A stretch of DNA of 64,000 nucleotides from a virus (Duplodnaviria > Caudoviricetes), in IMG/VR virus record IMGVR_UViG_3300022074_005559; one strand, 5' to 3'. Both the position numbers and the translations under genes were made by a program. The notes beneath the pieces were generated by a model. That model saw nothing but the letters and a program-made list of their open reading frames with translations, had not been told where the DNA came from and ran no database searches. Positions 37,619-58,524 of the stretch are shown here, in pieces (position 1 is the first letter of the stretch; each line of letters begins with the position of its first letter).

Positions 37619-37632
37619 GCATAAATACATAT

Positions 37633-42647: not shown

Positions 42648-43105
42648 GTCAATGGTATAATAGAGTAGTAAACAATCTTGTTGAGATTCCTAAGTTCATT
42701 AGTTACTATGAAAGTGAACTAGAAGAAGCAAAGCATGAGTGTAATGTTAAAGGTATTGTAGAAAAAAATATCACTGCACTGCCAGGTATAACCGAGCATC
42801 GTTTCAATCAACTTCAAGAGATTGAAGCAGTGCTTAACTACTTAAACATACAACTTCGTAAGATTAGACGCAAGCATTTCCAAAAATATTTGGAAGGATA
42901 TGCCCGTGCGTTAACAAGTCGCGATGCTGAAAAGTATGTTGATGGCGAGGATGAGGTCATTGACTTTGAAACTATTATTAACGAAGTAGCACTGTTGCGC
43001 AATAGATGGCTAGGCATAATGAAAGGCTTAGATACTAAGCAGTGGCAGATGGGACATGTTGTTAGACTTAGAACAGCAGGCATGGAAGATATCAGGATAG
43101 ATTAA
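42644..43105 (+). CDS. uvsY: Recombination mediator UvsY-like
   Basis: FQKYLEGYARALTSRDAEKYVDGE, LLRNRWLGIMKGLD.KQWQM. Confidence 0.75.
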   Translation: MSQWYNRVVNNLVEIPKFISYYESELEEAKHECNVKGIVEKNITALPGITEHRFNQLQEIEAVLNYLNIQLRKIRRKHFQKYLEGYARALTSRDAEKYVDGEDEVIDFETIINEVALLRNRWLGIMKGLDTKQWQMGHVVRLRTAGMEDIRID

Positions 43106-43518
43106 TGGACTTATTTCAACAAGTAGAATTTATATCACACGCAGGCATTCCAATGACATGGAAGATCGAAATGGATGCGCTCACAGATGCCGAATGGGCA
43201 GCTTGTGCAAAAATGGTTATGGAATATCAAAAACGTCCTTTCTACAAAGCAGTAGGAATTCCACGTGGCGGTGTTAAGTTTGCAAATGCACTTAACAAAT
43301 ACGCCAGTGGAGATCCCAACGATGAAGTGATGGTTGTTGATGATGTTTACACTACTGGTACAAGTTTCCGTGAATTTATTGCAGAGAACTATCCTATGTG
43401 GACAATGCAACAAGGTTTTCGTTGGTGTGTGTTTGCTCGCAAACCAAGTGATACTATAGAAGGTGGATTTGTAAAAGCTCTGTTTACTATGCCAGAAGCA
43501 ACGAACCAATATGATTAA
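43105..43518 (+). CDS. Type I phosphoribosyltransferase (PyrE-like, short)
   Basis: GIPRGG and PRPP loop VVDDVYTTGTS. Confidence 0.75.
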   Translation: MDLFQQVEFISHAGIPMTWKIEMDALTDAEWAACAKMVMEYQKRPFYKAVGIPRGGVKFANALNKYASGDPNDEVMVVDDVYTTGTSFREFIAENYPMWTMQQGFRWCVFARKPSDTIEGGFVKALFTMPEATNQYD

Positions 43519-44032
43519 GCAGTACATCAAAAGTTATCCAGACTTTCCCAAAGAGGGTGTAGACTTTAAATGTACAGCAAGTTTATGTGCAGGCGAAGGT
43601 TTAAGACTTGTAAACAACTATATGTATGATAACCTTTTGAAGTACATGCCTTGCGATAAGATTATAGGCTTAGATGCCCGTGGTTTTATATTTGGCGCAG
43701 TGCTAGCACATCGCACACGCTGTCCACTTGTACTGTGCCGCAAGCAGGGCAAACTACCTGGTGCTACCGTAAGCAACACATTTGAACTTGAATACGGTAC
43801 TGCTACAATGGAAATACAAAAAGATAGTATCAACAGAGGCGATAGAGTAATCATTATAGACGACTTGATGGCTACTGGCGGTACTATGCAAGCCGCGATT
43901 GATATGATATATGAACTTCATGCCACTCCTGTTGCAGTCGCAGTCGCAATGGATCTAAGTTACCTAAATGGTAGCAAACGTATCAAAGAACAAGGAATAC
44001 CTTTTTATGCAGCAACAGAATATCAATCCTGA
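43511..44032 (+). CDS. apt: Adenine phosphoribosyltransferase
   Basis: YPDFPKEGVDFK, GLDARGFIFG, RKQGKLPG, LEYG, IIDDLMATGGT. Confidence 0.9.
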   Translation: MIKQYIKSYPDFPKEGVDFKCTASLCAGEGLRLVNNYMYDNLLKYMPCDKIIGLDARGFIFGAVLAHRTRCPLVLCRKQGKLPGATVSNTFELEYGTATMEIQKDSINRGDRVIIIDDLMATGGTMQAAIDMIYELHATPVAVAVAMDLSYLNGSKRIKEQGIPFYAATEYQS

Positions 44033-44756
44033 CCACAGTCTACTAACACTAGAAGCACTAAATGAGTTTGACGACTTCAAGGCAAGTATTAAACACATGG
44101 CAGACTTTGGTTGCGGTAAAGGACTTGATCTAGAGTACTGGGGGAATATGCGTGAGAACACAGAACAAGGCCCAGGTAGATACTTGGATTTTAACTGTGT
44201 AGGCTTTGATTTAAATGCAGAAAGCAATAAACCAAGTCGCAAAAATATCAAATACAAAAACTTTGATTTAAACAGCAGTGATCCTATGTGGAGTGTTCCA
44301 TTTGATTTGATTTGGTGTAACAACACAATGCAATACTTACACAGTCCTGTTGAGTTTTTAGGCAGAGTAAACAAAAATCTCAGCATGGGTGGGATGCTGT
44401 ACTTGTGTGTTCCTAGCACAATAAATGTACTGCATCATAGGTTTCAAAACTATACTCCTGCAGGACATTTGAATACTTTCACTGTTACACAAATAATCTA
44501 CTTGCTAGCTCTTAACGGATTCGACGTAAAAGACTTTTATTTACAAAAACGTAAGTTTGAGGATATTATACAAGTGATTGTATACAAAGAGCGCGAACCT
44601 CTGCCTTATAATACTACATGGTACGAGCTAGTAGACAAAGACATCCTCAATGATGAAATGAAAGAGATCGTGCTTAAAAACAATGTACTTACAGACTTGG
44701 GTGTAGTTACTACTTGGGTAGATGGCACAGTACAAGACTATAGATGGCACACCTAA
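44007..44756 (+). CDS. Class I SAM-dependent methyltransferase
   Basis: ADFGCGKG, VGFDL, FDLIWC, GGMLYLCVP. Confidence 0.8.
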   Translation: MQQQNINPDHSLLTLEALNEFDDFKASIKHMADFGCGKGLDLEYWGNMRENTEQGPGRYLDFNCVGFDLNAESNKPSRKNIKYKNFDLNSSDPMWSVPFDLIWCNNTMQYLHSPVEFLGRVNKNLSMGGMLYLCVPSTINVLHHRFQNYTPAGHLNTFTVTQIIYLLALNGFDVKDFYLQKRKFEDIIQVIVYKEREPLPYNTTWYELVDKDILNDEMKEIVLKNNVLTDLGVVTTWVDGTVQDYRWHT

Positions 44757-45607
44757 AGTTTATTGCGAATTCTATTCCACTGCACACCTATCTCATCAGC
44801 AAACCATTCAGTATATGTCATACGATTTAACCAGTTGTGTCTATCAGGCTTGCTTAACCATTCTCCCATGCTAGTACCTACTTCATATGCTAAACTACTT
44901 TCACTTACTACTGCAGGCACACCTTGTATAACGCTAGTAATGCCAGCGTTGCTACTATGACTAACAGTAAAGTGTGTGTGCTTGAGCATATGTTCTAAAT
45001 CAAAACTGTCATAGGTTTGTTGTACATGCTTGGGTATATTCCATGTTACACCTTGATCCTTGTACCATTGCATATCGCAGTTCCAGTGCAGAGATTCTCT
45101 ATAGCGAGGATGACTGCGAACAACTATAGGTTTGTCTGTAACTTTGCGCACTTCTTGGATAGTATTACGATAGTAATAATCCATAACAGGCATATTGCGC
45201 CATTGCTCACTGCACCCATGTTGTCCACATATTAGCACATACTCGCCTTCTTGTTGCCATGGCTGTAACACAATGCCAAACTTGCTTAGTCTGTCGTCAG
45301 GCATGTAAGCATCTACAGCAAAGTCTGCATCTCTGTTGATCCCGTTTATACCCAACTTCCAAGTAGTGTTGCGTATAAGCCCGCCCACTTCAATGACAAT
45401 GATTGGCTTGTTTTGTGCGCGGTAATGATCCCATACACGTTTGTTAGCACTCATCTTTCCATACCATAGCACACTCCATATAAGTGCTGCATCAGCATCC
45501 ATGCTACCTTCAACAAGTGTGTCTGTTTGTTGTATAGCATCTACAAGTTGTGGATATACTTCTTGTGCATTGTTTGGTAAGTTATTTGGGAAGTGCGCTA
45601 TCTTCAT
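44753..45607 (-). CDS. KpsS/KpsC (Capsule_synth, GT107)-like protein
   Basis: YVLICGQ, IVVRSHP, SHSSNAGITSVIQGVPAV. Confidence 0.6.
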   Translation of the reverse strand: MKIAHFPNNLPNNAQEVYPQLVDAIQQTDTLVEGSMDADAALIWSVLWYGKMSANKRVWDHYRAQNKPIIVIEVGGLIRNTTWKLGINGINRDADFAVDAYMPDDRLSKFGIVLQPWQQEGEYVLICGQHGCSEQWRNMPVMDYYYRNTIQEVRKVTDKPIVVRSHPRYRESLHWNCDMQWYKDQGVTWNIPKHVQQTYDSFDLEHMLKHTHFTVSHSSNAGITSVIQGVPAVVSESSLAYEVGTSMGEWLSKPDRHNWLNRMTYTEWFADEIGVQWNRIRNKL

Positions 45608-46478
45608 CTTTGACTCTCTGTATGTTTTCCTCACTAATAGGAAACTCTGGTAAAACTTTCTGCAAGTATTCTAAATGCAGTAAAGGTGTAGGATGATGGT
45701 CAACACGTTCCCATAACCTAAACTTCGTGATTTCCTCTAGGGTTTCTGCATTCATTTTGTCTAATAAAAAACTGGTACTACGGCTGTGACGATCGATGTT
45801 TCCTTGTTCTAAATCTTGTATTGTAGGCAGTATACTGTCCTCAGGATTTTGATCGTAAAAATAGTTATCTGGAACATATAACTGTTCATACCAACTGCGA
45901 TCCTTTACAAGCTCACTGCGTCTGTTATACCAGTTTCCTTTGTAAACAACATCCAACATGCTAGGACGAACTTGATCAAAAAACCTTTGATATTTACGTT
46001 TATATAGACTTACTGTGTCATTGTTTAGTACTTGTTGTGTCCAACTTAACCGTAGATATTCTTTTGCATTGTCCAGTGGCATCATACTAGTGAATATGTA
46101 TTGACATCCTGTGTGTTCTAATGCTAAAAGTGCTGCAGATATATGTGCGCAATCTCTTATAAAAAAGCCTACAGGATCTACATACTCCATAAAGCCGTCA
46201 TTGTATGTGTTTTGATTATATATACAACCAGGTGCAATCCAGTCGTCTCCTACATAACGGTCTTCTCTAATCGTATTGCTCCACATGACTATAACAGTGC
46301 TTGATTCTGATATCTTGCGTTCTGCTATACATTGTAGTATACTATTGAAAATGTAAGTGTTACCTGCGCCACCTCTGCCGTGATTTTCAGAGTAATCAAA
46401 CTCTCTGCCTAAGATGTCCGCCCAGGTGCTCCAGTTATAGCTCGTAAAACTACAACCAAACGTAAAAAGTTCACTCAT
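45582..46478 (-). CDS. SGNH/GDSL-like hydrolase or acyltransferase
   Basis: FTFGCSFT, NHGRGGAGN, VIVMWS, DHHPT..LH. Confidence 0.6.
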   Translation of the reverse strand: MSELFTFGCSFTSYNWSTWADILGREFDYSENHGRGGAGNTYIFNSILQCIAERKISESSTVIVMWSNTIREDRYVGDDWIAPGCIYNQNTYNDGFMEYVDPVGFFIRDCAHISAALLALEHTGCQYIFTSMMPLDNAKEYLRLSWTQQVLNNDTVSLYKRKYQRFFDQVRPSMLDVVYKGNWYNRRSELVKDRSWYEQLYVPDNYFYDQNPEDSILPTIQDLEQGNIDRHSRSTSFLLDKMNAETLEEITKFRLWERVDHHPTPLLHLEYLQKVLPEFPISEENIQRVKDEDSALPK

Positions 46479-46502
46479 GTTTAAGGACCGATAAATAGTT
46501 AT

Positions 46503-47393
46503 ATGCGTACATTATCAGTATTTACCACCTGGCATCCCACAGGTTATAAGAAATATGGCAAGCAGTTTATTGAGGGATATAATCTAAACTGGCCCAAAGA
46601 AGTTCCTCTTACAATCTATGCAGAGGATCACAGCCCAAGTGTAGAAGGTAATCACAGTATTACTGTACACGACCAACGAACAACCTTGCCAGACCTTAAG
46701 GCTTGGCAAGAACGACACAAAGACAATCCGCATGCACACGGATGGAACAAAGATAAGAGCAAGAAAAGTTTTTTGTGGGACGCAAGTCGTTTTGCAAACA
46801 AAGTATTTGCACTGTGGCATTTTGCAGAACACTGTGATACAGATATCTTCGTCTGGTGTGATGCGGATGTGAGAACACATACACCAATGACACTGGAGTT
46901 TTTACATAGTATTGCACCAAACGAAAATCAACTTGCAACATATCTAGGACGCAAGACTTGGCCCGAGTGTGGCTGGATGATGTTTAATCGTCGTCATCCA
47001 CAGTTTGCGGAGTTAATGGAACAGTGGCGTTGGATTTACGAAAGCGATGATATTTTCAATCACGATGAAAGCCATGACAGTTTTATCTTTGGAGAACTTG
47101 TAGAGGACTTTAAAGCAGTGGGTGTAGAGTTTAATGACCTAGGCGGCGCTGACCAAGGCGGGCATATCTTTATTAACAGTGTACTAGGTGCTTACATGGA
47201 TCACTTAAAGGGCTTTAGAAAAGAAGTAGGCAAAAGTCTTGCAGGCGATATCACTGGTGGTTTTCAGCATAAAGACAACGAATGGTGGCAGGACGTAAGA
47301 CATGTTACTAAAAGTCAAATACAAGCAGAGAAACTTAAAAATCCGCATGAGTACGATGCTACTAAACAAGTGAAATCGAAAGGTATAAAATGA
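46503..47393 (+). CDS. GT-A glycosyltransferase (GT34/GT77-like)
   Basis: RFANKVFAL, WCDADV (DxD), HDSFIF, YMDHLKG; ATG 5 nt after GATAAATA (46490-46497). Confidence 0.75.
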   Translation: MRTLSVFTTWHPTGYKKYGKQFIEGYNLNWPKEVPLTIYAEDHSPSVEGNHSITVHDQRTTLPDLKAWQERHKDNPHAHGWNKDKSKKSFLWDASRFANKVFALWHFAEHCDTDIFVWCDADVRTHTPMTLEFLHSIAPNENQLATYLGRKTWPECGWMMFNRRHPQFAELMEQWRWIYESDDIFNHDESHDSFIFGELVEDFKAVGVEFNDLGGADQGGHIFINSVLGAYMDHLKGFRKEVGKSLAGDITGGFQHKDNEWWQDVRHVTKSQIQAEKLKNPHEYDATKQVKSKGIK

Positions 47394-48163
47394 GTAACCT
47401 AAGTGTATTACAAAACATAACAGAAGTGCGCAGCGATCCATTTCCATATGTGTGCGTGGAAGGCGCAATGCCTGATAGATTTTACAGAGAACTAGAAGCA
47501 ACATTTCCAGAGGATATGATTGTTAATAATACACAGCCACATGATGGCGGTATTTGTTATCGCTTTAAATGTAAAGAAGCAACTATGTGGCAACCGCCTG
47601 CTATTTGGCAAGACTTTTTTGCGTATCACTCAAGCACAGAATACTTTCGTAGTTGTGCAGAACTATTTGCTCCTCACATTGTTGCAGCATATGGTGAAGA
47701 GTTTTATGAAAACTTAAAAACAAAGCCAGTTAGTGTGCGTGATGTTGACCCCAGTGGACACTATGTAACAGACTGTCAGTTTGTTGTGCATGAGCCTGTG
47801 GATCAAACTGGCACTAGTCGTACACCGCATGTTGATAATCCTGTAGAGATTTATGCCGGACTACTATACATGCGCAAGCAAGCAGACATGGCAGAGGGTG
47901 GAAACTTTACAGTACATCGTGTAACAGGAGAAATCACAGAAGTAAATAAGAGCTTGGGCAGACAAGTGGACAACAGTTTGCACGAGCCGGTGTTTGAAGT
48001 ACCTTATCGTGCAAATAACTTTTGTATGTTCCTAAATGTAAAAAACAGTGTACACAGTGTTACACCTCGCATTGCTCCGACAGAGCGCAGACACAGCATC
48101 AACATTATTGGTGAGTTCAACGGCACAGGCAAGATGTGGAAAGTAAAAGAAATCAAATCGTGA
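47390..48163 (+). CDS. 2OG-Fe(II) oxygenase
   Basis: PHVDNP..IYAGLLYM, GGNF, VHSVTP, RHSIN. Confidence 0.8.
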   Translation: MSNLSVLQNITEVRSDPFPYVCVEGAMPDRFYRELEATFPEDMIVNNTQPHDGGICYRFKCKEATMWQPPAIWQDFFAYHSSTEYFRSCAELFAPHIVAAYGEEFYENLKTKPVSVRDVDPSGHYVTDCQFVVHEPVDQTGTSRTPHVDNPVEIYAGLLYMRKQADMAEGGNFTVHRVTGEITEVNKSLGRQVDNSLHEPVFEVPYRANNFCMFLNVKNSVHSVTPRIAPTERRHSINIIGEFNGTGKMWKVKEIKS

Positions 48164-49293
48164 AAGCACATTGTTTAATACCCTGGACTAACATAGACAT
48201 AGGCCCACGTGGACACATGGTGCCATGCTGTAAGTATGAATGTGACAACAGTGAAATGTTAAACATTACAGAAAACAGTGTACAAGATTATGTTGACAGT
48301 GACTTTCTCAAAGATATCAAAACCACTATGCTGAAAAATGAATGGCCCGAAGGTTGCATTCGTTGTCGCACAGAGGAAGAGAATGGTATTAAAAGCAAAC
48401 GAGAACTTGACTACGAGCGTTGGCAAACTCACTATGATGACTACAATGATCAAAAAGGATTTATTACAGCAAGCATAGGCTTCGGTAACACTTGTAACCT
48501 GAAGTGTATTACTTGTAATCCAACAAGCAGTAGTCGTTGGCGCAAAGAATACGCAGACATATATGGCGTAGACAAACCTCCTGTTGAAACAATCAGTCAA
48601 GCTGCTGACGACATTTATGCTAGCATGCCTAATCTCATACACTTGGATGTTATTGGTGGTGAACCTCTTATCAGTGAACCAGAAAAACAACAAGAACTAC
48701 TATTACGTTATGTACAAAGCGGACAAGCAAAAGACATGACACTGCACTATACTACAAATGCACAACAGTTTCCCAGTGAGATATGGTGGGACATTTGGTG
48801 TAACTTTGCAGAGATTGACATGCAGTTGAGCATTGACGCAGTAGGTCCTCGCTATGAATACATACGTCATCCTGCATGCAGTGTAACACTTGAAGACAAT
48901 GTAAAGAGCTGGCAAGAGGCTACACGAGAATATAGTAACCTACGACTTAGTGTAAGTCATACACTAAGCGCATACAACGTTTATTATTTGGATGAGTTTT
49001 TTAGTTGGTGTGAACATTTTGAGTTGCCTAGACCGTGGGTAGGAAGAGTACACACGCCCAAACACATGCGAGTAGATGTATTTCCTATGCAAGTAAAACA
49101 AAATATTATAGAGCATTTGCAGACAAGTAAATACCGAGACGTAAATACTTGGGCAAAGTTTTTATCAAGTAACGACAGCAGCGAATACTATGCAGACTTT
49201 AGGCGTTATACAGATCAACACGATTTATACAGACACACTAACTTTGCAGAAACATTCCCAGAACTAGAAAGGGTTATAAATGGCGTTCAATAA
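48160..49293 (+). CDS. Radical SAM protein with an N-terminal SPASM/twitch domain
   Basis: CLIPW...PCC; CNLKCITC (CxxxCxxC); GGEPL; TTN. Confidence 0.85.
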   Translation: MKAHCLIPWTNIDIGPRGHMVPCCKYECDNSEMLNITENSVQDYVDSDFLKDIKTTMLKNEWPEGCIRCRTEEENGIKSKRELDYERWQTHYDDYNDQKGFITASIGFGNTCNLKCITCNPTSSSRWRKEYADIYGVDKPPVETISQAADDIYASMPNLIHLDVIGGEPLISEPEKQQELLLRYVQSGQAKDMTLHYTTNAQQFPSEIWWDIWCNFAEIDMQLSIDAVGPRYEYIRHPACSVTLEDNVKSWQEATREYSNLRLSVSHTLSAYNVYYLDEFFSWCEHFELPRPWVGRVHTPKHMRVDVFPMQVKQNIIEHLQTSKYRDVNTWAKFLSSNDSSEYYADFRRYTDQHDLYRHTNFAETFPELERVINGVQ

Positions 49294-50095
49294 CATTATG
49301 CAGTTAGCAACTGCTACACTAGTGCAGCAAAATGCTTTTGCTCCTGATGCAACAGTTGTTGAATGGGGTAATCAAAGATTTAGATACAGTGATAGTTGGA
49401 TTGACACATGTGCAGCTGTAAGCGGAAAGACACTGCGTAAACCCACACAGTATGTCTGGGAATACTTTGAAGATCTTGGATTTAGTGATTATCTTGCTAT
49501 TGATATCAACACTGAACTGCGCAGTATTGCAATGGATCTCAACTTTATTCTTAAAGACAAATACAACTACACCCGACAGTTTGACTATGTAACAAACAAC
49601 GGCACAGGCGAACACATCTTTGACCAGCGCACAGTGTTTGAAAACATGCACAACTTGTGCAAAGTTGGCGGTACAATGATAAATGTACTGCCATTTGCGC
49701 CATGGTTTAATCATTGTTTTTACAGTTTTCATCCGCAGTTGTTCCGTGACATTGCCGCTGCAAATGGATACACTTGGCAGTTTATGTGGTTAGCACAAAA
49801 CACAGGCAAGTATGTAGACTGCCCTACAGACTTTGAAAGTTGGACATACTATGAACAAAAAAAGCCTCGCACTCCTGTTAGTGATTTGGAAAAGCATTTT
49901 GATGCCCTTCATAATCGCGAAGGCAAAACTCATAATGTTAGTATTGTTACTGCGTATACTAAAACAGAAGATAAGCCGTTTCAGATCCCGTTCCAAGGAA
50001 GATATGTAAACGATATTGTTGATGATTTGAAGAGCGAGTATAGTGAAACAAACGTAGATGTAAGACAAAAGGATCATACCAGTGCAACTTACTAG
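49280..50095 (+). CDS. Class I SAM-dependent methyltransferase
   Basis: YLAIDIN, FDYVTNNGTGEHIFDQ, GGTMINVLP. Confidence 0.7.
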   Translation: MAFNNIMQLATATLVQQNAFAPDATVVEWGNQRFRYSDSWIDTCAAVSGKTLRKPTQYVWEYFEDLGFSDYLAIDINTELRSIAMDLNFILKDKYNYTRQFDYVTNNGTGEHIFDQRTVFENMHNLCKVGGTMINVLPFAPWFNHCFYSFHPQLFRDIAAANGYTWQFMWLAQNTGKYVDCPTDFESWTYYEQKKPRTPVSDLEKHFDALHNREGKTHNVSIVTAYTKTEDKPFQIPFQGRYVNDIVDDLKSEYSETNVDVRQKDHTSATY

Positions 50096-50660
50096 TGCAG
50101 ATGTATGCCGTATTACATTTGAAAAGTGTATACCGCATATTACAAACTTTACTACAGCAATAGATGTAGGCTGTCGTTATGGACAGTTTACTAGACCTAT
50201 TTTAGAATATTTTGATCATTGTTATAGTTTCGATTACAGGTTGACGAAAGACATGAAGGCGTTGCTAGCAGAAACACTTGGAAAAAAAATAACCTACTAT
50301 GAAACAGGACTCAGTGACAAAGAAGAAACTGCTACGGCATGGGGTGGCGTTATCGTAGAAAACAGACAAGGACACTTCAGCGACAGTAAAAAGATGCAAG
50401 CACATTTAACAACCATGGACAGTTATGGTATACAAGACGTGGGCTTTATTAAGATAGATGTAGAAGGGCACGAGCTCATGGTACTGCGAGGTGCGCTGAA
50501 CACAATAGAAAGAAATAATCCTGTTATTTGCATAGAGCAAAATGATGCTACAGAGAAATGGGGAAAAGGCAAGGAGTTTGAGGCACTAGACTTTCTTAAA
50601 GACATAGGCTACACAGTGGTTGATACAAGAAAGCATGATTACATTATGGTACGCAAATAA
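50082..50660 (+). CDS. FkbM-family methyltransferase
   Basis: AIDVGCRYG, GLSD, FIKIDVEGHELMVLRGA, PVICIE. Confidence 0.85.
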   Translation: MQLTSADVCRITFEKCIPHITNFTTAIDVGCRYGQFTRPILEYFDHCYSFDYRLTKDMKALLAETLGKKITYYETGLSDKEETATAWGGVIVENRQGHFSDSKKMQAHLTTMDSYGIQDVGFIKIDVEGHELMVLRGALNTIERNNPVICIEQNDATEKWGKGKEFEALDFLKDIGYTVVDTRKHDYIMVRK

Positions 50661-51352
50661 TGTTTATTACAACAAATCACGAGCTGGGATTCATACACAT
50701 TCCTAAATGTGGCGGAAGCAGTGTGTATCTAGCATTTGCAGGAGAAGATAAACGCTACAGGAAACGTGCAGACATGCCGTGGGCACCATGGCCCATACAT
50801 AAAGCACACTCAAAATACAGAAGTGCATACCCTTATAAATCAGATAATAAACAACTGCCATTATTTCCACCACCTAAGCAGTGGTTCGCTACAGTGCGTA
50901 ATCCATATGCACGTTATCACACTTGGTTTTACTATCAACAAGAGTGGGATAGAAAACGATACGAAGGCGAACTGCCGTTAAAAGGTGGACTAACAATGGA
51001 AATGCTGGAATGGAGAATGCGTTATTGGGATACTGCAACTCCGCTCGGTGTTATTAAAACGTTTGATACAATCGACAAAGACGACTGTTGGCTATATGCT
51101 GTTGGTAATATTAGAACTCCTCAGTGGATGTGGATTACTGGCAGTGATGCAAAGTGCTTCAAACTAGAAAATATTGATAAAATGTGGACTTGGCTAGAAG
51201 ACATGGGCACACATGTTGAGCCTTTACACAATAAAAAGAACACAGCCAAAAAAGGCACATGGCTAGACCTAGACGAAGAAGTACTAGTGCTTATTCAACA
51301 ACGCTACAAGCAGGATTTCAATAAGTTTAAATATGACATGGTTATTACCTAA
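50660..51352 (+). CDS. Sulfotransferase family 2 protein
   Basis: 5'-PSB FIHIPKCGGSS; 3'-PB VRNPYAR; Y..DF..F.Y terminus. Confidence 0.85.
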   Translation: MFITTNHELGFIHIPKCGGSSVYLAFAGEDKRYRKRADMPWAPWPIHKAHSKYRSAYPYKSDNKQLPLFPPPKQWFATVRNPYARYHTWFYYQQEWDRKRYEGELPLKGGLTMEMLEWRMRYWDTATPLGVIKTFDTIDKDDCWLYAVGNIRTPQWMWITGSDAKCFKLENIDKMWTWLEDMGTHVEPLHNKKNTAKKGTWLDLDEEVLVLIQQRYKQDFNKFKYDMVIT

Positions 51353-52043
51353 TACAGACTTACTGTTTATCCATATTCCTAAATGTGGTGGTACAAGCAT
51401 AAGCAAAAGTTTAACTCGTTGCGCTATTGATTTAACAGTTCCGAGATTTCCACAAAGCACAATAGAAACTATTTGGCCCAAGGATGTTAGAAAAAAAGCA
51501 CCACCTCACATTAAAGTAAGTGAATATATTGCACTGGGATATGATCTAAGTAAGCATCATGTGTTCACACAAGTACGCAACCCTTACACACGATTAGTCA
51601 GTGTATATTATTTTGTTAAACGACAAGACAAAGCAAGAATGCATGGCAGAGACACAGATTTAAAAGCAGATATACAGTTTTACCGCCGGCGTTACACGAT
51701 GTTCAAGCACATGAGCTTCGAAGAGTTTGTTAAGACTTTTTTAGACCGTGATCAACAACCTGATTTAATCAATAAATGGGTAGTAGAAACTACCAGTCAA
51801 CTAGTGTATGGACTTACTCCTCAGTATACATGGACAGATGGACACCCTGTACAAATCTTTAAAATGGAAAAAGCAAACAAAGCAGTAAGGTTTATACAAG
51901 AAAAGATGGGTAAAGAGTTTTTCTATAGACATATGAAATGGCAAAGAATACAAGACTACATGGGACATTACAACGATGAACTCAGAGAACTTGTATATGA
52001 ATACTATAAACAAGACTTTGCGAAGTTTGACTATGCTGCATAA
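51333..52043 (+). CDS. Second sulfotransferase family 2 protein
   Basis: FIHIPKCGGTS; VRNPYTRLVS.Y; YKQDFAKFDY. Confidence 0.85.
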   Translation: MTWLLPNTDLLFIHIPKCGGTSISKSLTRCAIDLTVPRFPQSTIETIWPKDVRKKAPPHIKVSEYIALGYDLSKHHVFTQVRNPYTRLVSVYYFVKRQDKARMHGRDTDLKADIQFYRRRYTMFKHMSFEEFVKTFLDRDQQPDLINKWVVETTSQLVYGLTPQYTWTDGHPVQIFKMEKANKAVRFIQEKMGKEFFYRHMKWQRIQDYMGHYNDELRELVYEYYKQDFAKFDYAA

Positions 52044-52800
52044 AAATCTCAACAATCCTGACAGTAAATGCAACTGGGTAATGAACAGTTTACAAACGGG
52101 TTGGCAAGGACCCGAGCATCATTTCTGGGGTTTTATTGGCAACAATGAACAACAAATAAAAAAACTAACAGCCGAAGGCAAGGACTGGTATTTCTGGGAC
52201 ATGCCATATTATGGAAGATGGAATGGACTTAAACAAGCACTCAATCCTGAACAAGATTTTTATTGGCGGGCAAGCCGTAATCACATACACTATCGTCGCA
52301 CTGAGGACTATCCGGACGATAGATTTAGACAATGGGGTGTACAACCAAAGCCACATACCCCTGGATCCAAAATACTAGTATGTCCTAGCAGTGAAACAAT
52401 GACACGTTGGTGTACTGGTATGGATGTAAAAATGTGGACAAATACCATTGTTACTGCACTGCGTAAGTATACTGATAGATATATTGAAGTTAGATATAAG
52501 CCTCGCAAAAACGGCACAAGCGGTCCTAGTGTTGCAGATATTCCTTTTGCACAGCAATGTGAAAATACGCACTGTGTAGTTACTTGCATAAGTTTAGCGG
52601 CAGTGGAAGCACAACTATTAGGTATTCCAACCATATGTCATCCATACAGTTTTGCAGCGGACATAAGTAGTACTAAGTTAGAAGAAATCGAAAATCCTCG
52701 TCGTGTAGACACACAGCAATGGTTTAATAATCTTGCATACAGCCAGTTTACACATGGTGAGATTGAAAGCGGATTAGCACAAGAGATACTCAATGCCTAA
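52033..52800 (+). CDS. KpsS/KpsC (GT107)-like protein
   Basis: YFWDMPYY, ILVCPS, IEVRYKP, VVTCISLAAVEA.LLGIP. Confidence 0.6.
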   Translation: MLHKNLNNPDSKCNWVMNSLQTGWQGPEHHFWGFIGNNEQQIKKLTAEGKDWYFWDMPYYGRWNGLKQALNPEQDFYWRASRNHIHYRRTEDYPDDRFRQWGVQPKPHTPGSKILVCPSSETMTRWCTGMDVKMWTNTIVTALRKYTDRYIEVRYKPRKNGTSGPSVADIPFAQQCENTHCVVTCISLAAVEAQLLGIPTICHPYSFAADISSTKLEEIENPRRVDTQQWFNNLAYSQFTHGEIESGLAQEILNA

Positions 52801-53719
52801 ACTATATGTGTTTGACACACAGCGAAAAATAACCACAGACGTAACCATTTCATTTGCCAGAGGTGTTGCGCATCATAATAATCTAACACAAGGTCCTTGG
52901 GAAGTTAGACACATTCCTATTCAAAACTTTTTGGACAACGGCATGCCAGGAGATCTTGAACCAGGCGTCGATGCAGTTGCTACACTGGGCATACTTCGTG
53001 GTACAGGACTTATGCTTAAACAAGCAAAACGCCAAGGACTAGATTATTACTATATGGATCATGCTTACTTTAATCCAGGCTATAACGGTAAAGGCTGGAT
53101 GCGTATTAGTAAGAATGGACACAGTTGCCCTATAATCAGAGAATGCGACAAAGATAAATTCAAAGGATTTCATAACAATCACGGACACACTATAGAACCA
53201 TGGCGTACTAATGAACAACGCGGAGATAAAATACTTGTGCTGCCTCCAACAAATGCTGTGGCATGGTTTTTTGATGAACCTGATTGGGCACAAAATACAG
53301 TGGCAGCACTAAAAAATATACTCCCTCCCGAACAACACACGAGAATAGTTGTTAGAAATAAACCAAAAGAACCTGTTGTTGATGCTAGAGGCTTTTTAAA
53401 ACATTTAAAAATAAATGATATGAATGGCTCAACGCCTATCCAACAAGATCTTGAAGATGCGCAGTGTGTAGTTGCTTACAATAGTATGGTTGCACTGCAA
53501 GCAACTATGATGGGTATTCCTGTTATTGCTAGCGAAAACAGTCCTTGTGCTAGGATTAGTTTTGCACTAGATGACATTGCAAATCCTCAAGTGTTCAACC
53601 AAGAACCACAAAATAGACATAAACTTGTGTATTGGTTAGCATACAATCAATGGAAAATCAGAGACATTGAAAACGGCAAAGCCTGGCAAATGTTGCAGGA
53701 GAACTATAGTGGTTTTTAA
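52793..53719 (+). CDS. KpsS/KpsC (GT107)-like protein
   Basis: YYMDHAYF, ILVLPP, IVVRNKP, VVAYNSMVALQA..MGIP. Confidence 0.6.
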   Translation: MPKLYVFDTQRKITTDVTISFARGVAHHNNLTQGPWEVRHIPIQNFLDNGMPGDLEPGVDAVATLGILRGTGLMLKQAKRQGLDYYYMDHAYFNPGYNGKGWMRISKNGHSCPIIRECDKDKFKGFHNNHGHTIEPWRTNEQRGDKILVLPPTNAVAWFFDEPDWAQNTVAALKNILPPEQHTRIVVRNKPKEPVVDARGFLKHLKINDMNGSTPIQQDLEDAQCVVAYNSMVALQATMMGIPVIASENSPCARISFALDDIANPQVFNQEPQNRHKLVYWLAYNQWKIRDIENGKAWQMLQENYSGF

Positions 53720-54719
53720 AACTAATAAGTTAAGAGTTACATCAGAAGACTTCTACGCTAGTATAGATGAAGTGCCTGGTGTAATGGAACTGGCAAGACA
53801 AGGCTTTCATGATGCACTAGCAATGATAAAGCAAAATCTAGACAAACCAAGTTTATGTTTACAAATAGTAGCGACACGTCAGGCAAGTAAAGTAGCTCAC
53901 AGTGAACAAGGCGATATGATTGCTGCATATGGTTGGAAAGTTTGTGAAATATTAGGGCAAGGCAAGGATGGCATAACCTTCTGGGGTTATAGATATGATG
54001 ACGACAGTGAAGAAATGAACATCGTAAAAATACTTACACAATATGCTAAACTGTATAATAACCATACAGAAATATTTAATGCTATTTTGAGGAAATGCCA
54101 AGAAAGAAAAGCTGCTCCACATACTGCTCTCTTGGATCATGTTGTAAAAAACGATTATACAAACTATAAATGTGATCAGGTTTACAAGCACATTAAACAA
54201 GATCGCAAACAAATACACAAAGCATTGAGTAATATATGTAAAATGAATGCTTGGTGTATTGCAAACACAGGATTTGTATTTTGGGATTTAGGTTATAGCA
54301 ACGGACGAAACTTTATGATTGACCGTAAAGGCACAATAAAGTGGGTTGACTATGGCGGCGCTGGTATGCTACAATGTAAGAACTTTAAAGAAATATATGA
54401 CAGTTATAAAGGACTGCCAGTGCTTACACAACAGGCATATCCAGGTAAGTTAAGTCTTGTTGCTGGACGCAGTGATTTTGTATTTTGTCAGTTTTTATTC
54501 AACTATGAGTTTTGGAGTCAACCAAATACAACAGCAGATTTGTACAGCAGCATGCTTCAAGTAAAGAGTGAAGTTATTCCTGAGATAACAAAATGGGTAC
54601 TGCCTAATGTATTGTCTACAAAAATATCTCGCCAACTATATGAGAAGTATAAAGGCTGGGATTGGCTAGATGACAGAACTTGGAAAAGCGTAGGAAAGTT
54701 TTTTGATGCAAACACTTGA
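53709..54719 (+). CDS. Kinase-fold protein (Kdo/RIO/WbdD-kinase-like), GTG start
   Basis: Gly loop LGQGKDGITF, IVK, catalytic loop FWDLG..NGRNFMID, KWVDYG. Confidence 0.7.
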   Translation: MVFKTNKLRVTSEDFYASIDEVPGVMELARQGFHDALAMIKQNLDKPSLCLQIVATRQASKVAHSEQGDMIAAYGWKVCEILGQGKDGITFWGYRYDDDSEEMNIVKILTQYAKLYNNHTEIFNAILRKCQERKAAPHTALLDHVVKNDYTNYKCDQVYKHIKQDRKQIHKALSNICKMNAWCIANTGFVFWDLGYSNGRNFMIDRKGTIKWVDYGGAGMLQCKNFKEIYDSYKGLPVLTQQAYPGKLSLVAGRSDFVFCQFLFNYEFWSQPNTTADLYSSMLQVKSEVIPEITKWVLPNVLSTKISRQLYEKYKGWDWLDDRTWKSVGKFFDANT

Positions 54720-55383
54720 ACGAGCAGACATTGAAAGTATCACATTTGGTGGACACGACAGTCCGATAACACAAGTACGAGGATATCAAAACTATGATAT
54801 CAGTGACGAACAAGTGTTAGCATTAAATAATCCAGGACCAAAGCGTCCATGGGTAGATACAAAAATAAAAAGCAGAGATTTTGAACGTATATTTTTTGAG
54901 ATAAGTCCTCGTAGTTATGCTGACTTTGGCAGTAATCTAGGCTATTATGTTTTCAAAAGCGCACAAGAGTTTGATGTACCCAGTGTAGGTGTAGACTATA
55001 ACCGAGAATACATCGGTGTATGCGAAACAATAAAGCAAAGACACAGTGCGGCATTGGCAACATTTGTAAACACTAACTTAGATACATGGTGCCTGGACTC
55101 AGACCATTATGATTTTATGACAGTGTTTAATGTTATTCATCATTTATACAATCGAACAGAACGCTACATGGACATGGAGAAACTCGTAAACGACTTTGCT
55201 GACAAAGCAAGTGTAATATTATTTGAAGTACCCACAGAAAAAGATAAAAAAGGTCACAAATGGACTATGGATACTGGCTACAGCGAAGCACTGTTTGTAG
55301 AATGTGCAAATGAAATCTTTGCTAGTGTTGAACACATGCCAGGACAAACACAGCATCGTCCTTATTATTTGTGCAAGACTTGA
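54706..55383 (+). CDS. SAM-dependent methyltransferase, WbdD-MTase-like
   Basis: YQ near the N-terminus, ADFGSNLGYY, GVDY...IGVC, YDFM..FNVIHHL. Confidence 0.75.
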   Translation: MQTLERADIESITFGGHDSPITQVRGYQNYDISDEQVLALNNPGPKRPWVDTKIKSRDFERIFFEISPRSYADFGSNLGYYVFKSAQEFDVPSVGVDYNREYIGVCETIKQRHSAALATFVNTNLDTWCLDSDHYDFMTVFNVIHHLYNRTERYMDMEKLVNDFADKASVILFEVPTEKDKKGHKWTMDTGYSEALFVECANEIFASVEHMPGQTQHRPYYLCKT

Positions 55384-55394
55384 AAGGATCCTCA

Positions 55395-56084
55395 ATGAAC
55401 AACATTTATGTAGGCTGGGACAGCCGTGAAGATATTGCATATCAAGTATGCGAACACTCAATACTAAGACGCACATACCGAGAGTTTGTAAATGTAATAC
55501 CACTAAAGCAAAATGATCTACGAGAGCAAAAAGTTTATTGGCGCGAAGTAGATAAACTTGCTAGCACAGAGTTTACATTTACACGCTTTCTTATTCCGCA
55601 TCTAAACAACTACAAAGGACTAGCAGTGTTCTGTGATAGTGATATGGTGTTTTTAACTGATGCACATCATTTGTTTAACAACGGATTTAGAGATACTAGC
55701 AAAGCAGTTTGGGTAGTAAAGCATGACTACAATCCTCCGGAAGGACTAAAGATGGATGGGCAAATGCAGTTGCAGTATCCTCGAAAGAACTGGTCGAGCT
55801 TTATGATCTTTAACTGCGAACATCCTAGTTGTAAGAACTTGGATTTAGAAACCGTAAACAGTGAAACAGGCGCATACCTGCACCGCTTCGAATGGTGCGA
55901 TGATAGCGAGATTGGTGTACTGGGTCCTGAATGGAACTGGCTAGTAGGACATTACAACGAGCCTCAGGATGGTACACCTAAGGTACTACACTACACCGAA
56001 GGTGGTCCGTGGTTTGAAAACATGCGTGATTGCGAATATGATCATGTGTGGAAAAAAGAAGTAATCAACATGTATAGTAGTTAA
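55395..56084 (+). CDS. GT8-like glycosyltransferase
   Basis: VGWDSRE, STEFTFTRFL, FCDSDM, YPRKNWSS, LHYTEGGPWF. Confidence 0.85.
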   Translation: MNNIYVGWDSREDIAYQVCEHSILRRTYREFVNVIPLKQNDLREQKVYWREVDKLASTEFTFTRFLIPHLNNYKGLAVFCDSDMVFLTDAHHLFNNGFRDTSKAVWVVKHDYNPPEGLKMDGQMQLQYPRKNWSSFMIFNCEHPSCKNLDLETVNSETGAYLHRFEWCDDSEIGVLGPEWNWLVGHYNEPQDGTPKVLHYTEGGPWFENMRDCEYDHVWKKEVINMYSS

Positions 56085-56867
56085 ATGAAAAAAGTAGTAT
56101 TAGTTACAGGCGGATTTGATCCCTTACATTCAGGACACATTGCATATTTTAAAGCGGCTGCTGAACTAGGCGATGAACTATGGGTTGGCTTAAACAGTGA
56201 TGAATGGTTATCCCGTAAAAAAGGACGCAGTTTTATGCCTATACAAGAACGTGCAAGTATTGTAGAAGCAATGGGCTGTGTTAAGCAAGTTATAACTGGA
56301 TTCAAAGATGATGACGATAGTGCTTGTGATGCTATTCGTTGGGCACTAGAGTTAGGTGCTGAACATGTAGTATTTGCCAATGGCGGCGACCGCGGCGATG
56401 GTAACTGCCCTGAACTAGAAACTTACACAGCGCACGATGATGTATCATTTGTTTGGGGTGTTGGCGGCACAGATAAAAAGAATAGCAGCAGTTGGATTCT
56501 CAAAGAATGGCGAGCACCTAAAGTAGAACGCGAGTGGGGACACTACAGAGAACTATACAGCGGTGATGGGTTTAGTGTCAAGGAACTGGTGATTGCTCCG
56601 CACAGTAGTCTCAGCATGCAGAAACATAAACATCGCAGTGAAACTTGGAATCTAGTAAGTGGCAGTGCATATGTACTAACCAGTACTGGTTCTGATCCAT
56701 TTGACGGCGCAGGACGACAAACGCTAACTCCGCCTAATCCTGTGGACATTCCACGTGGCGTATGGCACCAAGGCGTAAACGACAGCGATGAGCCTGCACA
56801 CATTGTTGAAGTTTGGAAAGGCCCTAGCGAGCAGTTAACCGAAGATGACATTGAGCGTTTTGAATGA
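56085..56867 (+). CDS. Cytidylyltransferase-like (HIGH) domain fused to a cupin (type II mannose-6-P isomerase-like)
   Basis: GGFDPLHSGH, VGLNSD.WL.RKKG, FANGGDR; C-terminal REWGHY, SLSMQKHKHRSETW. Confidence 0.85.
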   Translation: MKKVVLVTGGFDPLHSGHIAYFKAAAELGDELWVGLNSDEWLSRKKGRSFMPIQERASIVEAMGCVKQVITGFKDDDDSACDAIRWALELGAEHVVFANGGDRGDGNCPELETYTAHDDVSFVWGVGGTDKKNSSSWILKEWRAPKVEREWGHYRELYSGDGFSVKELVIAPHSSLSMQKHKHRSETWNLVSGSAYVLTSTGSDPFDGAGRQTLTPPNPVDIPRGVWHQGVNDSDEPAHIVEVWKGPSEQLTEDDIERFE

Positions 56868-57589
56868 AAGAAGTAGCACTGGTATGTGCTGGCGCAAAGT
56901 TTGATCCCGATATTCATGTCCGCCAAATATACCTAAACTTACAAAAGAACTGTAGTGATTTTAGATTAACTGTTTTTACTGACAAAGGCAGAGGTCTAGA
57001 CTTGCCAGGTGTGCGACTTATACAGTTACCAGATTGGAATCTATCACCTAGACAGTTATGGTGGTATAAACTTTACATACACGCACAGCATGAATGGACT
57101 GGACCTGTGCTATACATGGATTTAGACACTGTAATCATCAACAACATAGACAAGTTTTGGGATTATCACCCGGGTGATTTTTGTATTTGCCAAGACTTTA
57201 ATAGACAGTTTATCAGAGACTATGCTGTTAGCAACAGCAGTATTATGCGGTTTGATCCCGGCACTACCTCGGAGATGTATAATAACTTTGTAGGTAATAT
57301 AGAAAAACATCTGCGTCAGTTTCGAGGTGATCAAGACTATGTTACTGATTGGTTTAAGAATCGTCCTGAGAAAACTTGGTGGCCCAAAGAATGGGCAATG
57401 AGTTACAAATGGGAAATAAAACATGGCGGTAGTCGTATAGGTGGAATGGATGTAAAATATCCAGATGATTACTACCATCCGGAACATGATGAAGTCATTC
57501 CGGATAAATGCAGTATTGTAGTATTTCACGGAAAACCTGATCCATATGACACAGATTTTGGTAAAAAAAGGTTGACAGTTCCTATATAG
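56864..57589 (+). CDS. GT-A glycosyltransferase (GT8-related)
   Basis: LWWYKL, LYMDLDTVI, NSSIM, GDQDY, VVFHGKPDP. Confidence 0.8.
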   Translation: MKEVALVCAGAKFDPDIHVRQIYLNLQKNCSDFRLTVFTDKGRGLDLPGVRLIQLPDWNLSPRQLWWYKLYIHAQHEWTGPVLYMDLDTVIINNIDKFWDYHPGDFCICQDFNRQFIRDYAVSNSSIMRFDPGTTSEMYNNFVGNIEKHLRQFRGDQDYVTDWFKNRPEKTWWPKEWAMSYKWEIKHGGSRIGGMDVKYPDDYYHPEHDEVIPDKCSIVVFHGKPDPYDTDFGKKRLTVPI

Positions 57590-57611
57590 GTGCTATTATA
57601 TATGTATAGTT
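57572..57611 (+). promoter_or_regulatory. Early promoter TTGACA-N16-TATTAT...TATAGT
   Basis: TTGACA 57572-57577, TGC-TATTAT 57591-57599; 30 nt identical to the 63916 promoter. Confidence 0.8.
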
Positions 57612-57635
57612 AGAAACAAGAGAGAGAGCGGAACT

Positions 57636-57980
57636 ATGCAACAGCAAATCGAAACACTGATCCAAGATATCAAAGCAGACTATATTAAGTTTGCAGAAGC
57701 TGCTAACCGCGGTCCAATCGCAAAGCAAACAGGTTATTTTGCAGAGCAGGTTGCCAAGTTTGATGATCTTATTACTGTAAAAACAGGTAACAAATACATC
57801 AAGATCGTTAGAGAAGGTAGCGTCTGGGGATTCATCGTTAACACTGATAAAGATAAAAAGTTTCAATATGGTGACATATTGATGGCTGCAGGGTTTAACG
57901 CTCCTGCTCGTAACAAAGCACGTGGTAACATTTTCAAAGGTTACAACATTCAATGGACAGGTCCTAACTACCTGCGCTAA
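57636..57980 (+). CDS. Conserved phage hypothetical early protein
   Basis: KYIKIV..GSVWGFI, GDILMAAG..APARN.ARGNIF. Confidence 0.75.
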   Translation: MQQQIETLIQDIKADYIKFAEAANRGPIAKQTGYFAEQVAKFDDLITVKTGNKYIKIVREGSVWGFIVNTDKDKKFQYGDILMAAGFNAPARNKARGNIFKGYNIQWTGPNYLR

Positions 57981-58017
57981 AACAATCCTCAATATAAAAA
58001 AGCAAAAGGAAGCATTT

Positions 58018-58206
58018 ATGAACAATATCAAAGGTAGAACTGCTGCAGAACAAGCCGCTATTGACGAGTATTTTGCCAATGGCGGTAAGGTTACAATCTG
58101 CCCTGTCAACGAACGTACAGAGGATCTTGTGGTCAATATGTTCAAACGTGGACGAGGGCGTCCTAAGAAAAAAGATGCGGATAAGGGGTTGACATCTACC
58201 GAATAG
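58018..58206 (+). CDS. Small protein with an AT-hook-like tail
   Basis: YFANGGKVTICP; KRGRGRPKK. Confidence 0.7.
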   Translation: MNNIKGRTAAEQAAIDEYFANGGKVTICPVNERTEDLVVNMFKRGRGRPKKKDADKGLTSTE

Positions 58207-58226
58207 ATGTTATTATAAATGTATAG
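58189..58226 (+). promoter_or_regulatory. Early promoter TTGACA-N16-TATTAT...TATAGT
   Basis: TTGACA 58189-58194, TATTAT 58211-58216. Confidence 0.8.
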
Positions 58227-58245
58227 TAAACATTTGGAGAGAGAT

Positions 58246-58524
58246 ATGTTTAAGTTCGAAAACCTCGCAAACATCGGTGATACTATTCGCAGCTATGACT
58301 TCGATCCTAAGATGATGGAAGCAATGGGCGAAACACCCAAGTACATCCAAGGCAAGATCATTGCTAAAGGATGGATCAAGCATCCAGTACATGGCTTCGA
58401 AATGTACAAAGGGTACACTATCCAGATTGAAGAAGATACAGAAGGTCATCGTATTGGCGATGAAGGTTATGTGCCTTTTGAAACAAGTTTTATGGAATAT
58501 GATAACCGTGTGGAGTTGGTATAA
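58246..58524 (+). CDS. Hypothetical early protein
   Basis: SD GGAGAGA; first gene after its promoter. Confidence 0.7.
   Translation: MFKFENLANIGDTIRSYDFDPKMMEAMGETPKYIQGKIIAKGWIKHPVHGFEMYKGYTIQIEEDTEGHRIGDEGYVPFETSFMEYDNRVELV

Follow-up and report, generated by a model that had tools for sequence, protein, structure and literature searches.

Why would a phage carry, behind its recombination genes, a 13.6-kb block of enzymes for glycan chemistry, and on which molecule would the product be displayed? This question is raised by the IMG/VR virus record IMGVR_UViG_3300022074_005559 (Duplodnaviria; Caudoviricetes), of which a stretch of 64,000 nucleotides, referred to here as the window, was analysed. 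Positions 43968-57589 are filled by 17 contiguous open reading frames (ORFs), g1 to g17, which mostly overlap or abut. Their predicted functions support a phage-borne island for glycan assembly and tailoring, and we tentatively favour a component of the virion as the carrier of the glycan. A sequence-only reading of the same DNA had proposed 16 contiguous genes that build a modified glycan on virion proteins. The packed block was found again, but with 17 ORFs, the number to which the earlier gene list itself sums; the glycan island and its late unit hold, whereas the virion as destination goes beyond what the data show.

The island genes appear to be real and not an artefact of assembly, because all of them have conserved orthologs, and because words of the island recur in nature. 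At least 95% of its sampled words were present in 15 metagenome runs (seawater or viral) that belong to at least eight studies. Marine RNA libraries contain short exact contigs of island genes, which indicate presence only, without strand, start or level, and are compatible with expression of the island but no proof of it.

The main unit of the island is predicted to be transcribed together with the late genes that encode the particle. A T4-type late promoter motif, GATAAATA, lies at 46490..46497 on the plus strand, with a gap of 5 nt to the start codon of g4 at 46503. The element ATAAATA occurs 16 times in the window, a count no higher than chance; 14 of these copies are intergenic, share the strand of the gene that follows (mostly a structural one) and precede its start by 12-144 nt, a placement with a binomial P of 8e-14 given that 8.4% of the window lies outside genes. 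In 10 of the 11 loci found to carry the island, the motif ahead of g4 is kept as NATAAATAGTTATATG, usually as a perfect copy of the T4 consensus TATAAATA, and the remaining locus has GGTAAATA, while the flanks upstream diverge. At the level of the motif, the locus therefore shows the TATAAATA-like -10 element before late genes that characterizes T4-type late promoters, and placement and conservation together bear out the earlier proposal that such a promoter at 46490 starts the main unit. The same 5-nt spacing was found before a structural-like gene of 834 amino acids (aa) that starts at 37633 (motif to start, 37621-37635, as against 46491-46505 for g4), suggesting that both late mRNAs are leaderless or nearly so. 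Since no further copy of ATAAATA is present within g4-g17, the 14 genes seem to form a single late unit that is nearly leaderless. In relatives, back-to-back late motifs separate g15 from g16, and another one precedes a porin gene.

The island occupies a fixed site and varies strongly around a stable core. In Sinorhizobium phage Phosso, uvsX and uvsY run straight into helicase genes with no such block, and 11 IMG/VR contigs carry the island after uvsY at the same site. Six genomes span it completely, with sizes of 13.7-15.3 kb and 38 gene families. Nine genes (g2, g4, g5, g7, g11, g12, g15, g16 and g17) are found in all six and g1 in five, while 28 of the 38 families are accessory, 18 of them singletons. 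Among these phages, identity amounts to 92-98% for the recombination proteins UvsX and UvsY. Within the island, g15 is the most conserved gene (93-95% in most relatives, 78% in L006), and the identity of g12, g13 and g17 drops to 44-69%. Cassettes seen in the relatives encode pyruvyl transferases, GT61 enzymes, B12 and SPASM radical S-adenosylmethionine (SAM) enzymes and more methyltransferases.

With so many accessory and singleton families, the locus could be a hypervariable site that gathers unrelated auxiliary genes, each acting on one of several separate targets (small molecules, proteins or the envelope, for example), and hence not one system. That g1 is part of the upstream operon, that g2 and g3 are encoded on the opposite strand, and that a porin and two phosphoribosyltransferase genes also land here would fit this explanation. 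We nevertheless consider it improbable, given that all six islands retain nine genes, whose order is constant and which overlap as expected for translational coupling, and that nearly every identifiable gene, whether core or accessory, belongs to glycan chemistry. Moreover, the triad of g4, g15 and a KpsC-like gene is also linked in bacteria, and a shorter version of the island exists in Pelagibacter phage Mosig, where two methyltransferases, a g4 homolog, a g12 homolog, a sulfotransferase and two glycosyltransferases stand in a row at 124.8-130.7 kb.

What, then, would the core build? Three glycosyltransferases of the GT-A type had been proposed, and g4 (46503..47393, plus strand) is well described as a retaining-type member by its AlphaFold model (predicted local distance difference test score, pLDDT, 90.3). 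The model matches retaining GT-A enzymes with Z scores of 13-14 over ~190 residues, with GT6, GT8/LARGE1/GlyE/glycogenin and PBCV-1 A064R all tied. This protein is without a sequence-family match, has ~890 homologs, is 79-91% identical among relatives and carries an invariant W118-x-D120-x-D122 (WxDxD). The assignment is looser for the other two, which are GT-A-like through weak GT8 matches, strong PHROG matches and their DxD motifs: g15 (55371..56084, plus strand) resembles GT8 (PF01501, E 6.5e-4, weak; phrog_28018, E 4e-51; motif DSD), and g17 (56864..57589, plus strand; 50-69% identical) matches phrog_1962 (E 2.3e-19), has an invariant D86-x-D88 (DLD) and shows a weak GT8 match in four of nine orthologs. 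The g15 gene lies on the plus strand here; in most relatives (e.g. L002:13633-14322) it lies on the minus strand and forms a pair with a GT61-like gene. The window differs from them by a local inversion with loss of the GT61-like cassette.

The core is completed by three further enzymes and three paralogs of another transferase type. As predicted earlier, g16 (56085..56867, plus strand) combines a TagD/RfaE-II-type nucleotidyltransferase (PF01467, CTP_transf_like, E 2.2e-12; partial matches to TIGR02199 and TIGR01518) with a cupin of the phosphomannose isomerase type (PF01050, MannoseP_isomer, E 2.4e-17). The proposed 2-oxoglutarate (2OG) oxygenase, g5 (47390..48163, plus strand), remains a candidate: the residues H147, D149 and H222 (HxD...H) are invariant in 10 orthologs, but the profile match to PF13640 (2OG-FeII_Oxy_3, E 1e-3) falls below the cut-off. 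A weak call as SAM-dependent methyltransferase was obtained for g7 (49280..50095, plus strand; PF13489, E 6.7e-5), which is 79-90% identical among relatives and present in six of six islands.

The paralogs g2 (44753..45634, minus strand), g11 (51976..52800, plus strand) and g12 (52793..53719, plus strand; 54-63% identical among relatives) had been read as KpsS/GT107-like. Further copies are found in relatives; the g2 family comprises 1828 proteins, mostly marine metagenomic, the longest metagenomic contig with a g2 ortholog has 292,868 bases, and a start of g2 at 45607 is likely because its orthologs have 284 aa. The 13 best entries of the Protein Data Bank (PDB) for the model of g12 (pLDDT 91.8) are all KpsC, WbbB or KrkA, with Z scores of 11.1, 10.6 and 8.2, respectively, compared to 7.9 or less for other GT-B enzymes; the fold of g2 and g11 is assigned via their paralogy to g12. 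[quoted passage not shown] These enzymes share a QXXXD motif with the nucleophilic Asp and a carboxylate-binding Gln, and a (K/R)XHP motif that binds cytidine monophosphate (CMP) (PMC12887879). In a MAFFT alignment of 26 family members, a reading that depends on the alignment and is not structure-based, the QXXXD site is occupied by QHGxS in g2 (Asp replaced by Ser), SSETM in g11 and PTxAV in g12, and a canonical QKxxD is found only in the extra paralogs of the relatives L005, L006, L008, L009 and L011. The second motif is intact in g2 (RSHP) and altered from His to Lys in g11 (RYKP) and g12 (RNKP). By hhalign, this segment was aligned, marginally (probability 45%, E 2e-4), to the stretch of a Capsule_synth protein from Rhizobium that contains RxHP.

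None of the 26 family members matches PF05159 (Capsule_synth) even at E 1, and the link to this family runs solely via a language model, which led to a neighbouring cluster with PF05159 in 10% of its members. Due to the missing QXXXD in all three proteins and the missing PF05159 match, we file g2, g11 and g12 as a putative divergent branch with the KpsC fold and not as GT107 members: of the earlier assignment, the KpsC-type fold holds on the evidence of the model, and the GT107 membership does not, as all three fail at the catalytic motif. Ulosonic-acid-type chemistry is still plausible, because of the fold match and because MptE/Maf-like genes (PF01973) in relatives adjoin a CMP-sugar synthetase gene (PF02348).

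The remaining genes would decorate the structure. Two sulfotransferases (Sulfotransfer_2) were confirmed above the PF03567 cut-off of 22 bits, namely g9 (50660..51352, plus strand; E 4.3e-6, 27.5 bits; phrog_3347), an accessory gene, and g10 (51333..52043, plus strand; E 1.1e-12 over the full length, 49.1 bits), an accessory singleton. They are 26% identical to each other, and both open with the HIPKCGG(S/T)S loop that binds 3'-phosphoadenosine-5'-phosphosulfate (PAPS). The accessory g6 (48136..49293, plus strand) is the radical SAM/SPASM enzyme that had been expected (PF13186, PF04055) and has its twitch/SPASM domain at the N-terminus, matching NF033640 over residues 11-380 with E 4.6e-87 and 292.7 bits (cut-off 170); a scan of IMG/VR with g6 gave no confirmed relatives. 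Four methyltransferases had been listed, and besides the weak call for g7, profile matches identify g1 (43968..44756, plus strand, likely start 44007; class I, PF13489, E 1.8e-12), the accessory FkbM-family enzyme g8 (50082..50660, plus strand; PF05050, E 4e-12; phrog_8156, E 1.3e-22) and the accessory g14 (54703..55383, plus strand; PF13489, E 2e-5). The orthologs of g1 are 66-73% identical, and its membership in the island is uncertain because it closes the uvsX-uvsY transcription unit.

The accessory g13 (53667..54719, plus strand) is a protein-kinase-like candidate whose motifs GxGKDG, the Lys in IVK, DLGYSN and DYG are invariant in six orthologs and spaced as in protein kinases. This spacing agrees with the kinase predicted earlier, but no match was found in Pfam, NCBIfam or PDB-profile searches; its family was found only in marine metagenomes. 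Both g13 and g14 are present in three of the six islands and jointly absent from the other three, so that g13, when present, is always paired with g14. This co-presence fits a functional pair, for example one that makes a methyl-phosphate cap. A known precedent for such a cap is WbdD, a kinase plus methyltransferase, while WbbB adds a GT99 beta-Kdo cap, and both work with an ABC exporter. The pair travels like a split WbdD, a likeness of gene content, and g12 resembles WbbB in fold (Z 10.6); in contrast to these terminators, the island is without the QXXXD of WbbB and without an ABC exporter.

Least defined is g3 (45582..46478, minus strand), an accessory SGNH/GDSL-like candidate for an acyl esterase or transferase that occurs in this genome only among the six compared. 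The SGNH label of the earlier reading is backed by a GCS motif at the N-terminus and, from a language model, by a lead to clusters of DUF6071/Lipase_GDSL, but no Pfam match was found. Where the window has g3, relatives encode beside g2 a Gram-negative porin of 278-279 aa (PF13609, E 6.6e-21; L002:1784-2620, minus strand, and the same position in L003, L007, L009, L010 and L012). A late-promoter motif precedes this gene in L007, L009, L010 and L012, which would make it a phage porin expressed late.

The borders of the island deserve a brief description. Between uvsY and g1 (43105-44032), the window contains two overlapping phosphoribosyltransferase genes, the second with a PF00156 match (E 3.6e-13); both are absent in the compared relatives, where uvsY is directly followed by g1. 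Beyond g17, a minus-strand ORF at 57582-58274 (230 aa) was discarded as probably spurious, because it has no family match, contains a strongly hydrophobic stretch and overlaps plus-strand early-promoter-like sites (TTGACA-N16-TATTAT) at 57572 and 58189.

Searches of NCBIfam returned nothing for g2, g3, g4, g11, g12, g13 and g17, and sequence and profile searches of the PDB gave nothing usable for g12, g13, g4, g5 and g17. The 17 island proteins contain no transmembrane-like segments, and profile searches detected among them no ABC exporter, Wzx flippase, Wzy polymerase, initiating phosphoglycosyl transferase or DNA methylase. The earlier statement that an exporter, a polymerase and a recognisable DNA C5-methyltransferase are missing thus stands for all 17.

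Given their place behind the recombination genes uvsX and uvsY, the glycosyltransferases, oxygenase, radical SAM enzyme, methyltransferases and kinase-like enzyme of the island might act on DNA instead and decorate a modified base to evade restriction. Glycosylation of phage DNA and kinase- or radical-SAM-dependent hypermodification of thymidine are established, and Pyle et al. in 2024 are said to be a source on phage DNA modification. We regard this explanation as very unlikely here, since the control is by a late rather than an early promoter, no match to a DNA methyltransferase or to TET/JBP was obtained, and g5 weakly matches a prolyl-hydroxylase-type model only. Likewise, no thymidylate-synthase-like hydroxymethylase was detected in the contigs of three relatives, which are 9-38% complete. 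Sulfotransferases, pyruvyl transferases and six glycosyltransferases suit polysaccharide chemistry, and the cellular homologs adjoin capsule-synthesis genes of the KpsC family.

The reading that we prefer is a glycan that is attached in the cytoplasm to a component of the virion and yields a strain-specific acidic, methylated and sulfated coat of the particle; we consider this a sizeable possibility, slightly short of an even chance. In this scheme, the core, comprising the GT-A enzymes g4, g15 and g17, the KpsC-fold proteins g2, g11 and g12 as well as g5, g7 and g16, would build a conserved inner structure. Exchangeable cassettes would give each phage strain its own decoration, and in the genome studied here these would be the radical SAM enzyme g6, the FkbM methyltransferase g8, the sulfotransferases g9 and g10, the g13-g14 pair and the SGNH-like g3. 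Nucleotide sugars, PAPS and SAM would come mostly from the host. The order of the steps, the identity of the sugars and the acceptor are inferred parts of the scheme.

Two properties of the locus argue for the virion, namely the control by a late promoter and an enzyme set that is entirely soluble. Three leads point to a protein as acceptor. The first are the Maf-like genes in relatives, the Maf family being known to glycosylate flagellin. Secondly, g4 matches PBCV-1 A064R, a capsid-glycosylating enzyme, as well as any other GT-A enzyme. Thirdly, giant Caulobacter phages have a g12 homolog within a group of transferase genes that is flanked by a tail gene and the lysis cassette. In Caulobacter phage CcrColossus, this cluster (L096, 98.8-103.4 kb) borders on the gene for a tail protein of 1665 aa and includes the sialyltransferase-like gp126, the g12 homolog gp128, the nucleoside diphosphate-sugar transferase gp129 and the GT9 gene gp131; it may serve as an experimental model in a cultured phage.

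Virion glycosylation has precedents. Freeman et al. in 2023 reportedly described it for the mycobacteriophages Che8, Corndog and Myrna, with two to four genes and the C-termini of the capsid and tail tube proteins as proven acceptors. Like these systems, some of which have a methyltransferase, the island would modify particle proteins in the cytoplasm by soluble phage transferases. It differs from them by its 17 genes, by sulfation, by the KpsC-fold enzymes and by a Gram-negative-type host. Giant eukaryotic viruses (PBCV-1, Megavirinae) perform clade-specific, multi-gene glycan synthesis in the cytoplasm, with methylated or pyruvylated sugars, and the glycans of their fibrils or capsids have been chemically characterised. 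The island shares with them a multi-gene glycan set and the similarity of g4 to the GT-A domain of A064R (Z 13.6, tied with other retaining GT-A enzymes); however, virus realm and host are different, and the likeness remains at the level of the fold.

Several observations weigh against a decorated virion. No protein encoded in the window, the structural ones included, shows a Ser/Thr-rich C-terminal tail, the major capsid gene lying outside of it. The use of the promoter is deduced from sequence only, g2 and g3 are on the opposite strand without a recognised promoter, and the RNA-library contigs of island genes could derive from carried-over DNA. The late timing itself becomes weaker evidence for the virion, because the porin gene of the relatives has a late promoter as well. 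Finally, the closest cellular homologs of g4 and g15 adjoin KpsC-family genes, and in one Rhizobium locus also an ABC exporter and a KpsF-like gene, which is a setting of lipid-linked surface polymers.

This last observation leads to the strongest competitor, in which the island is the phage's counterpart of the serotype-specific segment in the middle of a capsule or K-antigen locus that depends on an ABC transporter, and remodels the surface of the host. In isolates of Rhizobium and Pseudovibrio, homologs of g4 and g15 (39-42% identity) are located together beside a Capsule_synth (PF05159) protein of 860-896 aa, an arrangement that recurs in several isolate genomes. The locus of Rhizobium sp. 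CC1099 adds an ABC2_membrane/ABC_tran pair, a KpsF-like SIS+CBS gene and ManC. In two Roseibium loci from metagenome-assembled genomes (MAGs), homologs of g4 and g8 stand beside an ABC pair, and one of these loci also has a match of the g2/g11/g12 type. By gene content, the island thus seems to resemble the variable biosynthetic part of such a locus minus its export part. With its soluble enzymes, the island would synthesise, lengthen or cap a lipid-linked polymer on the inner membrane, a host exporter would carry this polymer out, and the late change of the surface could mask receptors so that progeny or competitors skip infected cells or debris. We consider this quite possible, though it too falls below an even chance.

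Further support comes from KpsC and WbbB, the nearest solved structures to g12, which act on lipid-linked glycans (PMC12887879). KpsC and KpsS are themselves soluble, and the missing membrane segments are therefore no argument against remodelling of the host surface. The late-promoter porin beside g2 in relatives would represent a late investment in the host envelope. On the other hand, neither the island nor the 64-kb window contains an exporter, KpsF/KpsU or a lipid-initiating enzyme, and remodelling would consequently depend wholly on the machinery of the host. Superinfection exclusion usually acts early, and late timing is therefore odd for it. In addition, g2, g11 and g12 are without the nucleophile motif of the Kdo transferases, and the best-conserved enzymes of the island show much less variation than a variable host polymer as acceptor would lead one to expect.

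The comparison with group 2-like capsule and rhizobial K-antigen loci gives a similarly divided picture. Common features are the g4 and g15 homologs next to Capsule_synth, the KpsC-like modified GT-B fold of g12, the combination of conserved and variable, serotype-like genes, and decorations with sulfate, methyl, phosphate and pyruvate groups. In contrast to group 2 loci, to which it cannot be assigned, the island has no KpsM, KpsT, KpsE, KpsD, KpsF or KpsU (no ABC, membrane or SIS-domain protein), its GT-B paralogs are without PF05159 and QXXXD, and its carrier is a lytic-type jumbo phage with late promoters. A further comparison is with the marine T4-like pelagimyophages and cyanomyophages, for whose clusters of lipopolysaccharide-related and glycosyltransferase genes a role in host O-chain modification has been proposed, also without experiments (PMC7029224). 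These clusters share GT8-type transferases as well as rfaE-like and radical SAM genes in hypervariable regions with the island, which differs by its occurrence in a jumbo lineage near PA5oct, Atu_ph07 and Phosso, its fixed site after uvsY, its larger gene set and its explicit late promoter.

Returning to the decorated virion, we hypothesize that the lineage clothes its particle with an acidic polysaccharide that resembles a capsule and is sulfated and methylated, made by capsule-type enzymes that include a divergent KpsC-fold branch without the usual nucleophile, and diversified by serotype-like cassette exchange, so that near-identical phages wear different coats. In this full form, we regard the proposal as possible but rather doubtful.

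The phage that harbours the island is an uncultured jumbo phage of the T4 superfamily that is widespread in the sea. This placement is based on the genes of the window (tail sheath, tail tube, fibre-like proteins, large terminase, a gp32-like single-stranded DNA-binding protein, UvsX and UvsY), on protein identities, on the estimated genome size and on the metagenome distribution described above. UvsX is 67% identical to that of Sinorhizobium phage Phosso and 63-66% identical to those of Agrobacterium phage Atu_ph07 and a 349-kb Vibrio phage, and the large terminase is 52% identical to that of Pseudomonas phage PA5oct. A 131.6-kb contig of a relative was rated 38% complete, which leads to an estimated genome of ~350 kb. 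A megablast search of the island against GenBank phages gave no DNA-level match. Alphaproteobacteria are the likely host group, because the hosts of the phages with a shorter version or a g12 homolog (Pelagibacter, Caulobacter) and the cellular homologs point to this class. An assignment to the aquatic jumbo "moraphage" lineage was rejected, as the phage has T4-type gp32, UvsX and UvsY together with late promoters. Moraphages are described as being without much of the machinery of other large phages and have predicted Bacteroidota hosts (PMC12619734). Multi-gene versions of the island, with g4 up to 80% identical, also occur on contigs in MAGs of unrelated taxa, namely Legionellales, TMED46, Rickettsiales, Verrucomicrobia, Pacearchaeota and Crocinitomicaceae (L016, L025, L038, L057, L062 and L074); these are probably misbinned phage contigs.

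While clusters of glycan genes in marine T4-like phages, and the untested host O-chain reading of them, were already known (PMC7029224), the jumbo lineage, the fixed insertion site, the quantified variation of core and cassettes and the conserved late promoters are new. The same applies to the KpsC-fold paralogs without the nucleophile motif and to the link of g4 and g15 with bacterial capsule-type loci of the KpsC family. If the glycan is indeed displayed on the virion, then abundant marine phages of Gram-negative hosts would join the mycobacteriophages and giant eukaryotic viruses as cases of virion glycosylation, and sulfation and serotype-like diversity would be added to it, which would bear on adsorption, aggregation and grazing and on how host defences recognise the phage. 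If it is instead placed on the host surface, a lytic phage would bring the variable part of a capsule pathway only and plug it into the exporter of its host late in infection. Under either reading, KpsC-fold paralogs without the QXXXD nucleophile pose a tractable question of enzymology, and the triad of g4, g15 and a KpsC-like gene gives the uncharacterised genes of alphaproteobacterial capsule-like loci a role that can be tested.

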